The position numbers and the translations under genes were made by a program. The notes beneath the pieces were generated by a model. That model searched no databases and was not told the origin of the DNA. It saw only the letters and a list, made by a program, of their open reading frames with translations. From IMG/VR virus record IMGVR_UViG_2563366886_000002, positions 1 through 38,381 of that record: DNA of 38,381 nucleotides, one strand, 5' to 3'. Of this stretch, positions 20,977 through 26,999 are shown piece by piece. Position 1 is the first letter of the stretch. Every line of letters begins with the position of its first letter. This stretch comes from a virus. Its lineage: Duplodnaviria > Heunggongvirae > Uroviricota > Caudoviricetes.

Positions 20977-22146
20977 ATGAAGAAATTAATCGAACTCCGC
21001 CAGCAAAAAACCGCCCTGAAAAACCAGATGCGATCCCTGCTGGAAAAAGCCGACAGTGAAAACCGCAGCCTGAACGATGACGAGGGCAAACAGTTTGATG
21101 AACTGCGTGCAAAAGCCGATTCCCTCGACACAGAAATTTCCCGCCTCGAGTCTGTGGCTGATGAAGAACGCAGCAAGCCAGGAACGGGCATCCAGAAATT
21201 ATCATCTGATGAATTGCGTAACTACATCGTAACCGGAGATGTGCGATCACTGACCACCAGCACTGACAGCGGCAGGGATGGCGGATATACCGTAATTCCT
21301 GAGCTTGATCGCGAAGTCATGCGCCAGCTACAGGATGACAGTGTTATGCGCGTGATCGCGACCGTGAAGACCGCAAAATCAAATGAGTTTCAGAAACTGG
21401 TTTCCACTGGCGGCGCAACTGTAGGACGAGGCACAGAAGGCAGCGCACGTAGTGAAACCAACACCCCGAAAATTGAACGTGTAACCATCAAGCTGAATCC
21501 GATCTACGCCTACCCGAAAACCACGCAGGAAATCCTGGATTTTTCAGAGGTGGATATTCTGGGCTGGTTATCCTCCGAAATTGCCGACACGTTCGCCAGC
21601 ACCGAAGAGGATGATTTTGTTAATGGCGACGGTAACGGCAAGCCGAAAGGCTTCATGGCTTACACCCGTGCGGCGACCAGTGACAAAACCCGCGCTTTTG
21701 GCACCATTGAAAAAGTGGTAGCGGCAAGTGGAACCGCCATTACAGCGGACGAACTGATCGACATTCTCTACAAGCTGAAAGCGAAATACCGCAAAAATGC
21801 CGTCTGGGTGATGAACTCGGGCACGGCAGGGACACTACAGAAGCTGAAAAATGAGAATGGCGATTATATCTGGCGCGACAGCCTTAAAGAAGGTGCGCCG
21901 GATATGTTGCTTGGTCGTCCTGTTTTCTGCCTGGAGTCCATGCCGGACATCGGCGCAGGAAAAGCACCGCTAGCGGTTGGCGATTTCAGTCGTGGTTATT
22001 TCATCGTTGATCATGTAACAGGGATTCGCACCCGACCGGACAACATTACTGAACCCGGATTCTACAAGGTCCACACGGATAAATATCTGGGCGGTGGTGT
22101 GGTGGATTCAAACGCCATCAAAATTCTGGAAATGAAAGCTGGCTAG
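20977..22146 (+). CDS. major capsid protein, HK97 fold (element copy)
   Basis: 389-aa ORF with N-terminal coiled-coil delta-domain-like region then capsid-like body; paralogous by eye to the helper capsid at 30232..31449. Confidence 0.75.
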   Translation: MKKLIELRQQKTALKNQMRSLLEKADSENRSLNDDEGKQFDELRAKADSLDTEISRLESVADEERSKPGTGIQKLSSDELRNYIVTGDVRSLTTSTDSGRDGGYTVIPELDREVMRQLQDDSVMRVIATVKTAKSNEFQKLVSTGGATVGRGTEGSARSETNTPKIERVTIKLNPIYAYPKTTQEILDFSEVDILGWLSSEIADTFASTEEDDFVNGDGNGKPKGFMAYTRAATSDKTRAFGTIEKVVAASGTAITADELIDILYKLKAKYRKNAVWVMNSGTAGTLQKLKNENGDYIWRDSLKEGAPDMLLGRPVFCLESMPDIGAGKAPLAVGDFSRGYFIVDHVTGIRTRPDNITEPGFYKVHTDKYLGGGVVDSNAIKILEMKAG

Positions 22147-22200
22147 TCATGAGTAAGGAGGAGGCTGCGGCCTCCTTTTTCAGCTTTATGGAGTACACCG

Positions 22201-22761
22201 ATGAAAAACACCGATTTTGAAATCCGCACATCTGAACTGACCGCCAGCAATAAAAAGCTGGTGGGGTATGCCGTTCGCTGGAACAGCCTTTCAGAAATTA
22301 TCTGGGACGAATTCCGCGAACAGTTCACGCCGGGGGCTTTTGCTGACTATCTGGCGGCGGGTAATGATGTGCGCTGCCTGTATGAGCATGACTATACCCA
22401 ACTGCTGGGGCGCACCAAATCCGGCACTCTGGTACTGACTGGGGACAACACCGGGCTACGTTTTGAACTGACACCGCCTGATACCCAGCTTGGAAAAGAT
22501 GTGCTCACGCTGGTGTCGCGTGGCGACATTACAGGAATGAGCTTTGGCTTTCGCGCATTATGCGAAGAATGGAATATCGCGCAAAAACCGTATTTGCGTA
22601 CCGTAACCGCCGCTGAACTCCGAGAAATCACAATAACGTCGATGCCTGCTTATCCAGAATCTGGCGTGGAGATTGCCCACCGTTCGTTGTTTGCACAGCA
22701 CCCTGAATTACGCCCGGCAGGAAATAATCGTCATCGCTGGGCTGAACTGGCGGGGTTGTGA
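22201..22761 (+). CDS. prohead protease, HK97 family (element copy)
   Basis: 186-aa ORF between capsid and portal; resembles the helper protease at 29618..30217. Confidence 0.7.
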   Translation: MKNTDFEIRTSELTASNKKLVGYAVRWNSLSEIIWDEFREQFTPGAFADYLAAGNDVRCLYEHDYTQLLGRTKSGTLVLTGDNTGLRFELTPPDTQLGKDVLTLVSRGDITGMSFGFRALCEEWNIAQKPYLRTVTAAELREITITSMPAYPESGVEIAHRSLFAQHPELRPAGNNRHRWAELAGL

Positions 22762-22762
22762 T

Positions 22763-24709: not shown

Positions 24710-24997
24710 ACAGGAGCAAAACAGGCTGATACGTGGACTGATAAGGCAGCGTGACTTATGGAAGACACAGGAGACAGGGCACAAAGTCAACAGGACAGGG
24801 CGCACAGAACGCACCACACCGAAGCGATTAACCGACCGTGACCGCGAGGTCATGGAATGTTTTCGCAATCGCTGGTGAGGCTGTCAGAGGGGGTGGGGGA
24901 GGTTTTCAGGACGAAACCGTCCCTGCCGGACACCGACCGCCTCCTCAAATTTTTGTGCACGGGAATTTTTTTGAAAATAATTGGGCGAAAAAAGAAC

Positions 24998-25354
24998 ATG
25001 GCAAGACCACCAAAAGCCCCCGCTTACCTGGATGAAATCGCGGTCAGGCAGTGGAAGGAAAAATCGCGCCAGCTTTCCGGGCGGGAAGACCTTACCCCCG
25101 CCGACTGGAGCAATCTGGAGCTGTATTGCGTTAACTACTCCATATACCGCAAAGCCGTCGAAGACCTTGCGACGCGCGGATTCAGCATTGTTAACAGTCA
25201 GGGCAGTGAGAGCAGAAACCCCGCCCTGAGCGCAAAGGCTGACGCAGAAAGAATAATGATCAAAATGGCTTCTTTGCTGGGTTTTGACCCGGTAAGCCGC
25301 CGCAGAAATCCACCGGAAACAGAGGAAGAGGACGAGCTTGACCGCCTGGCATGA
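24998..25354 (+). CDS. terminase small subunit (P27 family), element copy
   Basis: MARPPKAPAYLDEIAVRQWKEKSRQLSGREDLTPADWSNLELYCVNYSIYRKAVEDL...; precedes terL; start chosen by analogy to the helper terS. Confidence 0.65.
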   Translation: MARPPKAPAYLDEIAVRQWKEKSRQLSGREDLTPADWSNLELYCVNYSIYRKAVEDLATRGFSIVNSQGSESRNPALSAKADAERIMIKMASLLGFDPVSRRRNPPETEEEDELDRLA

Positions 25355-26999
25355 GTACGCAGAAGGCGTAAAAAACGGCAAAATTACGGCCTGTAAACGA
25401 CTGAAACAGGCCGTTAAACGGTATTTTTCTGACCTTGAAAACCCCCTTTACACGTTCGATCCGGAGGTCGTGGAGCGGTTTATTGCCTTTTCCAGGGTGT
25501 GCCCGCACGTAAAAGGCGCAATGCGCGGTAGCCCCATTGAGCTGGAGCCGTGGCAGCAGTTCGCCTTTGCGTGCATCCTGGGCTTTAAGGTTAAGGCCAC
25601 CGGGCGGCGCAAATACACCAGCGCATTCATTGAAGTACCGCGAAAAAATGCCAAATCCACGGTCGCCGCTATCCTGGCTAACTGGTTTCTGGTTATGGAA
25701 AACGGGCAGCAGGATATTTACACCGCCGCCGTGAGTCGTGATCAGGCGCGGATCGTGTTTGATGATGCGCGTCAGATGTGCCTTTTATCCCGACCGTTAC
25801 GAAAGCGGGTAAATATTCAGGCACACAAGGTGATACACCCGAAAACCAACAGCCTGTTAAAACCACTGGCAGCAAAAGCGGCAACCATTGAAGGTACAAA
25901 CCCGAGTCTTGCCATTGTGGATGAATATCACCTGCACCCTGACAACGGGGTTTATTCCGCGCTTGAACTGGGAATGGGGGCGCGTCCGGAGGGGTTATTA
26001 TTTGCCATCACCACATCGGGGAGCAACGTTGTTTCAGCCTGTAAACAACACTACGACTATTGCTGCCAGATACTGGATGGTGAAGAGGTGAACGAATCCA
26101 TGTTCGTGCTGATTTACGAGCTGGATGATGAAAGCGAGGTTGACGATCCGGCGATGTGGATAAAGGCGAATCCCAATATCGATGTTTCCGTCGATCGTGA
26201 AAAACTGGCCTCAACCATCCAGAAAGCGCGGGGTATTCCGTCGCAGTGGGTGGAAATGCTCACCAAGCGATTCAATATCTGGTGTCAGGGGGCTACGCCG
26301 TGGATGGGTAACGGTGCATGGGCGGAGTGCGCCGGAACGTTCGCGGAGGCGGATTTATACGGGCAGGAGTGCTACGCGGGGCTGGACTTATCATCAACCA
26401 GCGATATTTCCAGCGTGTGCTATGCCTTTCCGGTCGGTAAAAAGATTATGCTGGTTTCCCGTCACTATCTGCCGGAATTTCAGCTACAGAACCCCGCCAA
26501 TAAAAACCGCGCCATCTATCGCCAGTGGGTAAAGGCGGGCTGGATACGCACAACACCGGGTGACTGCATTGATTATGACCGTATCCGTGATGACATCATG
26601 GCAGATGCAGAAAATTTCAATATCAGGCTGGTGGGCTTCGATACATGGAACGCCACGCACCTGAGGACGCAGCTACAGGGCGCAGGATTTGAGGTGGAGC
26701 CGTTCCCGCAAACATACCTTCGTTTCAGTCCGGCGGCGAAATCGTTCGAAGTTTTTGTTAACCGGAAGGTGATTGTGCATCGTGGTGATCCGGTGCTGGC
26801 CTGGTCAATGAGTAATGTTGTGATGCAGAGTGACGCGAACGCCAATATCAAGCCGAACAAGAAAAAATCATCCAACAAGATAGACCCGAGCGTTGCGGCG
26901 CTGATGGCGTTTGGCACATTCCAGGCAGAGCATGAGGAATTTGCATTCGATATGAGCGACAGCCACAAAGAGCGGCTTGCGGCGTTTGATGGTGTGTAA
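25338..26999 (+). CDS. terminase large subunit, complete (element copy)
   Basis: 553-aa ORF (TTG start); both halves align by eye with the split helper terL fragments. Confidence 0.85.
   Translation: MTAWHEYAEGVKNGKITACKRLKQAVKRYFSDLENPLYTFDPEVVERFIAFSRVCPHVKGAMRGSPIELEPWQQFAFACILGFKVKATGRRKYTSAFIEVPRKNAKSTVAAILANWFLVMENGQQDIYTAAVSRDQARIVFDDARQMCLLSRPLRKRVNIQAHKVIHPKTNSLLKPLAAKAATIEGTNPSLAIVDEYHLHPDNGVYSALELGMGARPEGLLFAITTSGSNVVSACKQHYDYCCQILDGEEVNESMFVLIYELDDESEVDDPAMWIKANPNIDVSVDREKLASTIQKARGIPSQWVEMLTKRFNIWCQGATPWMGNGAWAECAGTFAEADLYGQECYAGLDLSSTSDISSVCYAFPVGKKIMLVSRHYLPEFQLQNPANKNRAIYRQWVKAGWIRTTPGDCIDYDRIRDDIMADAENFNIRLVGFDTWNATHLRTQLQGAGFEVEPFPQTYLRFSPAAKSFEVFVNRKVIVHRGDPVLAWSMSNVVMQSDANANIKPNKKKSSNKIDPSVAALMAFGTFQAEHEEFAFDMSDSHKERLAAFDGV

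Follow-up and report, generated by a model that had tools for sequence, protein, structure and literature searches.

Two diverged HK97-type head-and-packaging gene sets in an Escherichia coli prophage with a probable capsid-forming satellite inside its large terminase gene

The window analysed here, the whole 38,381-nucleotide stretch at positions 1 to 38,381 of the IMG/VR record IMGVR_UViG_2563366886_000002, contains two sets of HK97-type head and packaging genes. It very probably represents an E. coli HK97-like temperate prophage (the helper) that carries a 15,245-bp capsid-forming phage-inducible chromosomal island (cf-PICI; the satellite) inside its own large terminase gene, terL, in the configuration known as helper-embedded PICI, or HE-PICI, at the site A:Terminase_1:246. 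The satellite spans 12277-27521 and breaks the helper TerL into two fragments, 11249-12276 and 27522-28251. Each partner has its own head-and-packaging set, and only the terL of the satellite is intact.

Two head-and-packaging gene sets and a split terminase gene

The initial annotation proposed that two paralogous head and packaging sets share the window, and a map of the open reading frames (ORFs) combined with Pfam and PHROG scans confirmed both, with all genes on the plus strand. The region 20977-26999 runs exactly from the start of the satellite capsid gene to the stop of the satellite terL and comprises the following features.

20977-22146, plus strand: satellite major capsid protein, HK97 fold family (Pfam Phage_capsid, 3.6e-71)
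22201-22761, plus strand: satellite prohead protease (Pfam Peptidase_S78, 3.6e-45)
22763-23977, plus strand: satellite portal (Pfam Phage_portal, 8.1e-93; start taken from the annotation of E. coli 042)
23970-24269, plus strand: satellite head-tail adaptor Ad1, gp6-like (phrog_40 'head-tail adaptor Ad1', 1e-27; Pfam Phage_connect_1 at 8.9e-4, under the gathering score)
24269-24709, plus strand: satellite HNH endonuclease (Pfam HNH, 8.8e-10)
24693-24878, plus strand: small conserved ORF, phrog_3173
24998-25354, plus strand: satellite small terminase, P27 family (Pfam Terminase_4, 4.2e-23)
25338-26999, plus strand: satellite large terminase, intact, 553 amino acids (Pfam TerL_ATPase and TerL_nuclease)

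The helper set lies on either side of the satellite.

10170-10619, plus strand: helper HNH endonuclease (Pfam HNH, 3.3e-16; in the E. coli 042 annotation the gene begins at window position 10269)
10767-11249, plus strand: helper small terminase, P27 family (Pfam Terminase_4, 1.7e-25)
11249-12276, plus strand: 5' fragment of helper terL (Pfam TerL_ATPase, 2.3e-27; TerL_nuclease profile positions 2-64)
27522-28251, plus strand: 3' fragment of helper terL (Pfam TerL_nuclease, 7.2e-37, profile positions 64-283; called ORF 27526-28251)
28399-29625, plus strand: helper portal (Pfam Phage_portal, 3.3e-100)
29618-30217, plus strand: helper protease (Pfam Peptidase_S78, 1.6e-40)
30232-31449, plus strand: helper capsid (Pfam Phage_capsid, 2e-70)
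31526-31843, plus strand: helper Ad1 adaptor (phrog_40, 6.1e-33)

The satellite order is capsid, protease, portal, Ad1 adaptor, HNH, TerS and TerL, and the helper order (10170-12276 plus 27522-31843) is HNH, TerS, TerL, portal, protease, capsid and Ad1. These orders were given correctly in the initial annotation, which described them as reversed; the reversal applies only to capsid-protease-portal against portal-protease-capsid, and the order HNH-terS-terL is kept. With every gene on the plus strand, the sets differ by a rearranged gene order and not by an inversion. Membership of the sets was assigned by Pfam or PHROG family, and the E-values across them, from 1e-9 to 1e-100, exclude chance family matches.

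In BLASTP alignments between satellite and helper, the HNH proteins are 41% identical, TerS 27%, TerL 32%, portal 29%, protease 38% and capsid 25%. The two Ad1 proteins show no similarity by BLASTP, and their kinship is visible only through the shared phrog_40 profile; by blastn, satellite DNA has no match in helper DNA. The sets are thus homologous yet diverged, as had been proposed from the letters alone with near-identity named as the sign of a simple recent duplication. The amino acid identities of 25-41%, together with the missing DNA similarity, argue that no recent duplication took place. The further proposal that the satellite is devoid of head-closure, tail and lysis genes also holds: the Pfam and PHROG scans found no such family in any satellite ORF.

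The boundaries of the satellite are marked by a 7-bp repeat and by a pair of doubled motifs.

12270-12276, plus strand: attL identity block TTACCAA
12407-12429, plus strand: doubled motif tGTGTATTGCacTGTGTATTGCa, of the HE-PICI attP arm type, 131 bp downstream of the core
27418-27440, plus strand: second doubled TGTATTGC copy, ending 81 bp before the core end
27515-27521, plus strand: attR identity block TTACCAA, the 7-bp repeat shared with attL

Removal in silico of one TTACCAA and all DNA between the two copies yields an uninterrupted TerL ORF of 585 amino acids, with the predicted attB/attP junction sequence ...TTTTTTACCAAACACATG... Among the best matches listed, annotated intact terL genes agree at 100% identity with an 800-bp reconstruction of the empty site. 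The empty junction occurs in one piece in 905 of 5,426 complete E. coli genomes, while the attL junction was found in 36 and the attR junction in 34; at least 80% of the entire 17-kb arrangement is present in 33. This recurrence of the junctions and of the arrangement excludes an assembly chimera. Structurally, nothing at the locus is more striking than the split at TTACCAA, which goes unmentioned in the text of the initial annotation; since the satellite is integrated inside the helper terL, the relation between the two is closer than was stated there.

An ORF of 699 amino acids (11249-13348) begins at the helper TerL start and continues in frame through attL into the P4-type integrase gene of the satellite. 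A TerL'-Int translational fusion acting as a cis-regulatory device was considered and rejected as a general mechanism, since the open frame is not conserved: the A_Terminase_1_246 attL of Arsenophonus in the supplement of the HE-PICI study cited below carries an in-frame TGA about 18 codons past the core, and in the prototype HE-PICI, 11capE, a stop codon lies 8 codons past it. The fused ORF is most likely an accident of gene calling, as a note by the authors of that study implies.

Helper-embedded position and kinship of the satellite

HE-PICIs are satellites that lie within the late genes of a helper prophage, co-oriented with them and without replacement sequence (Tommasini, Mageeney & Williams 2023, PMC10111431). 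In the window, the int, alpA, primase and late genes of the satellite are all on the plus strand, as is the helper late operon; the satellite brings no replacement end for the interrupted terL, whose ORF is restored by excision only; and an uninterrupted attB is present in related prophages. The doubled HE-PICI motif tgTGTATTGCantgTGTATTGCa is reported 81 ± 2 bp upstream and 132 ± 2 bp downstream of the attP centre (PMC10111431). The doubled TGTATTGC motif is present exactly twice in the window, 131 and 81 bp away from the 3' edge of the core.

E. coli 042 matches the window best among database records, and its satellite copy differs from that of the window at three places in 15,245 bp: in the window, the A run of int is 1 bp shorter, the G run at 16250 is 1 bp longer and there is one single-nucleotide polymorphism. 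Both copies have the same TTACCAA block and the same terL position. The 042 element was assigned to the A_Terminase_1_246 group by Tommasini et al. and is listed in their Supplementary File 1 as Eco33.15.A_Terminase_1_246 (FN554766.1/2250958-2235714, helper Eco33.57.zinT|mtfA), with the att identity 'ttaccaa' and the remark 'reannotate term_int fusion' (PMC10111431). The helper flanks differ from 042 at 64 of about 2,000 positions (10268-12276) and 141 of about 10,900 (27522-38381), distributed patchily and amounting to 1.3-3.2%; upstream of the HNH gene, the helper lysis region also differs in gene content (bor-like gene, IS1). A near-identical satellite in helpers that have diverged by 1-3% suggests that the satellite has recently moved between helper variants, or that the helper has undergone mosaic recombination.

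The prototype HE-PICI, Eco567.11capE, is integrated in a lambda-like capsid gene and, like the window satellite, sits in a helper late gene of which it encodes a homologue. The two also share a doubled motif about 132 bp from the core and co-orientation with the late operon, and the satellite integrase, in its intact 042 form, is 50% identical to that of 11capE and 42-43% identical to that of the prototype cf-PICI, EcCIEDL933. In contrast, the late zone of 11capE is limited to a capsid and a decoration gene, without terS, terL or portal, and its target is the capsid gene E rather than terL; it presumably uses the cos packaging of its helper.

A close organisational parallel is EcCIEDL933, an island of about 15 kb that shares with the satellite the order int, alpA, then DUF927, SSB, PerC, capsid, protease, portal, connector, HNH, small ORF, terS and terL. 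Amino acid identities between the two are 93% for TerL, 88% for TerS, 84% for HNH, 82% for DUF927, 81% for portal, 78% for SSB, 63% for capsid, 62% for protease and 57% for Ad1, and the small ORF at 24693-24878 is 80% identical to the EcCIEDL933 ORF at the same position between HNH and terS; it is possibly the counterpart of prototype gene '1792'. EcCIEDL933 differs in being chromosomal, between roxA and phoQ, and no TGTATTGC arm motifs have been reported for it. The satellite carries its own capsid, protease and portal as well as its own HNH, TerS and TerL, as cf-PICIs do, and its 15,245 bp fall within the 14-16 kb or so expected of an island free of tail, holin and lysis genes, with no such family in any ORF. 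It also has the PICI backbone of a left-end integrase, here frameshifted, an AlpA-type regulator and a primase or replicase in a common orientation.

Other relatives extend this kinship. The late module recurs at 97.5% nucleotide identity in an island that is integrated at fis and has another replication module; this recurrence shows modular exchange between chromosomal and helper-embedded islands, and the compact organisation of about 15 kb is found at other attachment sites. A 16.5-kb record from an induced lysate, Escherichia phage vB_KppS-Ant (LR881103.1), shows the gene order of cf-PICIs, and its TerL is 83% identical to the satellite protein; the record differs by another integrase and primase, a head-closure-like gp9 and an extra large ORF after terL. 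Among the named matches, the phage records with more than 37% identity to the satellite TerL are three of 10-16.5 kb, a size like that of satellites, and one Klebsiella phage record of 106.5 kb; beyond these, the satellite TerL is at most 37% identical to those of full-size phages. The helper TerL, at 32%, is as distant from it as that of any phage, in agreement with the published view that cf-PICIs are deep lineages and not recent captures.

These relationships bear on three other explanations of the inner gene set. A recent duplication within the prophage, or a recent capture of helper late genes by the satellite, would place both sets in the same Pfam families, as observed, and Tommasini et al. 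do propose that PICIs capture clusters of helper late genes (PMC10111431). This origin is nevertheless close to negligible in probability: beside the low protein identity, the missing nucleotide similarity and the different gene order, the satellite set is nearer to other cf-PICIs (57-93%) than to this helper or any phage, and the published phylogeny separates cf-PICIs as deep lineages. The inner set might instead be left over from another HK97-like prophage that has degraded, nested in the first or in tandem with it, and seven phage-type morphogenesis genes with an integrase, together with the absence of tail and lysis genes that a deletion might leave, would accord with such a history. It is extremely unlikely in view of the precise ends with conserved HE-PICI arm motifs, the layout of P4-like Int, AlpA, Bro, DUF927 and PerC, which PICIs typically show and prophages do not, the recurrence of the organisation of about 15 kb at other att sites and in the 16.5-kb induced-lysate record, and the TerL identity of at most 37% to full-size phages, the Klebsiella record of 106.5 kb excepted. 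A complete HK97-like prophage at 12277-27521 was likewise rejected, with head-closure, tail and lysis modules absent there and present only in the surrounding helper.

The third alternative holds that the satellite TerL, or its whole packaging set, serves as a functional backup for the split helper TerL, so that the helper packages without satellite excision. The idea of a 'backup copy' was raised in general terms by Tommasini et al. (PMC10111431), and the satellite TerL is intact where that of the helper is split. Such a role is very unlikely given the cross-set identities of 32% for TerL and 27% for TerS, and given that in the EcCIEDL933/HK106 pair the packaging genes of the PICI play no part in phage packaging and that HK106 terL or capsid mutants give PICI-sized particles only (bioRxiv 10.1101/2022.09.08.507074). 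The two sets are orthogonal paralogues, neither a duplication nor mutual backups.

A P4-like satellite was also considered and rejected: there are no Pfam matches to Psu, Sid or Delta and no Rfam match to C4 or isrK at the gathering score, so no P4-type immunity RNA was detected. Likeness to P4 is limited to the integrase type and to a bipartite iteron layout that resembles P4 ori/crr.

Other genes of the satellite and the helper

The satellite is organised in Int/AlpA, Bro, replication (DUF927, SSB, iterons) and late zones. Outside the head-and-packaging module, it contains the following features.

12449-13671, plus strand: tyrosine integrase, P4-like (Arm-DNA-bind_3 and Phage_integrase), frameshifted in the window copy
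13637-13870 and 13904-14212, plus strand: two AlpA-family helix-turn-helix regulator or excisionase genes (Pfam Phage_AlpA, 1.9e-9 and 7.2e-10)
14270-14848, plus strand: Bro-N domain protein of the Bro zone (Pfam Bro-N, 7.2e-20)
14994-16802, no strand assigned: variable zone, comprising the next five entries
15194-15517: degenerate gene remnant, 66% identical to an EcCIEDL933 hypothetical protein
15460-15657, minus strand: DUF3950/YlcI-like gene
15864-16066: Icd-like gene
16059-16271 and 16264-16497: small ORFs
16503-16802: DUF4222 gene
16799-18919, plus strand: DUF927 replication protein of primase/helicase type (Pfam DUF927, 2.1e-46)
18942-19066: iteron cluster 1, six exact TGCGGGTTA (2 forward, 4 reverse) adjoining the DUF927 gene; putative origin
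19130-19555: SSB
19559-19867: PerC-family regulator
19861-20148: unknown protein, phrog_1957
20184-20690, minus strand: unknown protein, phrog_5789
27080-27234: iteron cluster 2, TGCGGGTTA three times forward, an AT-rich spacer and three times reverse, after terL and near attR

The 9-mer TGCGGGTTA has 11 exact copies across the two clusters, all within the satellite. In the 042 annotation the region 14994-15517 is a pseudogene, and the 357-amino-acid 'ORF' at 14993-16066, which overlaps the decayed EcCIEDL933-like remnant, is not a real gene. A PADLOC search for defence or accessory cargo among the ORFs of unknown function (20184-20690, 19861-20148 and others) gave no match. Across 10000-28600, a promoter scan found 9 promoter-like sites, fewer than the 21 in shuffled sequences, and 31 terminator-like hairpins were counted against 21 in shuffles, a modest excess; neither scan is decisive.

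The helper head genes continue into neck and tail genes.

31852-32190, plus strand: helper head closure (Phage_HCP)
32187-32636, plus strand: gp10-like protein
32633-32977, plus strand: tail completion protein
33038-33742, plus strand: major tail protein, with chaperones downstream
34471-37704, plus strand: tape measure protein

The segment 28399-31843 shares 99.5% nucleotide identity with the Escherichia phages PhiR49_2 and vB_EcoS-689R5, and the helper head genes are likewise 99.5% identical to those of Escherichia phages of about 40-41 kb (PhiR49_2, Evi). Over 31876-33459, the neck and tail genes are 67% identical in nucleotides to those of HK97/HK106; HK106 is a proven tail donor for EcCIEDL933 (bioRxiv 10.1101/2022.09.08.507074).

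Several further loci lie to the left of the helper HNH gene. An IS1 element with insA/insB-like ORFs (62-1045) at the left edge of the window interrupts the early/nin region of the prophage relative to 042. The sok antitoxin RNA, matched in Rfam at 2370-2541 with 106.7 bits, identifies a type I toxin-antitoxin locus of the hok/sok kind in the prophage, annotated as hokD in 042. Downstream of a Q-like antiterminator gene (4572-5393), the stretches 5537-5787 and 6486-6675 hold between them two tRNA genes, with anticodon CAT (tRNA-Ile2 in the 042 annotation) and tRNA-Arg TCT, and the small RNA STnc100 (132 bits), situated upstream of an IraM-like gene (6701-7036, minus strand). A lipoprotein ORF (9450-9791, minus strand), apparently Bor-like by eye only, sits between the genes for the Rz-like lysis protein and the helper HNH and falls outside both the 042 gene table and the DNA alignment of the window with 042, indicating that the junction of the helper lysis and terminase regions differs between strains.

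Head closure, candidate cos regions and the predicted satellite cycle

The set of head-tail joining genes departs from the cf-PICI pattern: cf-PICIs have two, and the satellite has one, Ad1 (23970-24269). In EcCIEDL933, a head-closure gene lies between portal and connector/Ad1 (L002 12996-13334), and the satellite is without it. A tblastn search of the window with the EcCIEDL933 head-closure protein found no match in the satellite and only the helper Phage_HCP gene (31852-32190). At 52%, the identity between this EcCIEDL933 protein and its helper counterpart clearly exceeds the 30-38% of other cross-set pairs. A satellite with one joining gene would match 'Type B' of de Sousa et al., a class with 10 of 11 components. 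The late module is present at ≥95% identity in at least 157 complete genomes, and all rows at ≥95% in the sampled late-module table are without the 340-bp insertion; the variant devoid of head closure therefore appears to be common. Such a satellite probably takes head closure from its helper.

Candidate cos regions were located between HNH and terS in both partners.

10638-10651, plus strand: helper G-rich GGGGAGGGGCAGGT, candidate cos-region element
24890-24912, plus strand: conserved GGGGTGGGGGAGGTTTTCAGGAC, candidate satellite cos cleavage region

GGGGTGGGGGAGGTTTTCAGGAC is near-invariant in EcCIEDL933, with one mismatch, and falls at the linear end of the vB_KppS-Ant record of 16.5 kb, although the ends of database records may be arbitrary. 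The pattern GGGGNGGGGNAGGT, derived post hoc, occurs just twice in the window, each time at the equivalent site upstream of a terS. The helper GGGGAGGGGCAGGT is related to but distinct from the satellite GGGGTGGGGGAGGTTTTCAGGAC; distinct motifs would fit separate cos recognition by each partner, as the initial annotation had envisaged.

Genetic work on EcCIEDL933 by Alqurainy et al. established that transfer of the satellite, but not of the phage, requires the satellite genes for capsid, protease, portal, connector, HNH, terS and terL; mutation of the packaging-module genes abolished transfer, with gene 1792 as the exception. The helper homologues of these genes are required for the phage and not for the satellite, and the phage tail genes by both (bioRxiv 10.1101/2022.09.08.507074). 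EcCIEDL933 capsids are small, with T=4 and 47.5 nm, and contain only satellite DNA of about 15.5 kb (10.1101/2025.02.11.637232). The proposal that the satellite makes its own proheads, fills them by its own cos and terminase and borrows tails matches these experiments, and by homology the window element would follow the same mechanism.

On induction, the composite prophage would excise and replicate, and helper late transcription would run into the satellite. The satellite integrase and AlpA would then excise the satellite and restore the helper terL. Satellite capsid, protease and portal proteins are predicted to assemble small T=4 proheads, and the satellite HNH-TerS-TerL would cut and package satellite DNA only, with its own cos probably near 24890-24912. 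The filled satellite heads would join helper tails, probably using the helper head-closure protein as well, and helper lysis would release the particles. The embedded position may add cis effects of the kind shown or argued for 11capE (PMC10111431): the helper terL would remain unexpressed until satellite excision, and helper late transcription and replication would traverse the satellite.

Several points weigh against this account. The int gene has an A7 run at 13333-13339, where 042 has A8 and an intact protein of 407 amino acids; the resulting frameshift, at about residue 297 of 407, lies ahead of the catalytic H-x-x-R and Y. If real, it would leave the window copy unable to excise and the helper terL permanently broken. 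This 1-bp difference may be an assembly error or a genuine slippage mutation, and the same two explanations may apply to a second homopolymer difference from 042, G8 against G7 at 16243-16250 inside the small ORF 16059-16271. The missing head closure means that the satellite either borrows this function or is impaired, because mutation of each packaging-module gene of the prototype other than 1792 abolished transfer. In addition, Tommasini et al. recovered no virions from a model HE-PICI and its helper (PMC10111431).

A more elaborate joint scheme, which we regard as unlikely, would make the satellite dependent on the helper for head closure besides tails and would treat the interruption of terL as a timing lock, in which the helper makes no TerL before satellite excision and the orthogonal terminase packages first. 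As part of the same doubtful scheme, the A7/A8 tract of int would be a slippage switch by which the lock is frozen and the helper made inoperative.

The cf-PICI family, the HE-PICI configuration at A:Terminase_1:246 and a near-identical copy of the element are already published, and the locus reveals no new biology. Its residual value lies in the loss of head closure in a common cf-PICI variant, in candidate cos motifs for both partners and in the hint of recent satellite movement. As a natural example, the window shows two orthogonal head-and-packaging systems of the HK97 type sharing a single composite mobile element, in which the position of the satellite controls the integrity of the helper terminase gene.

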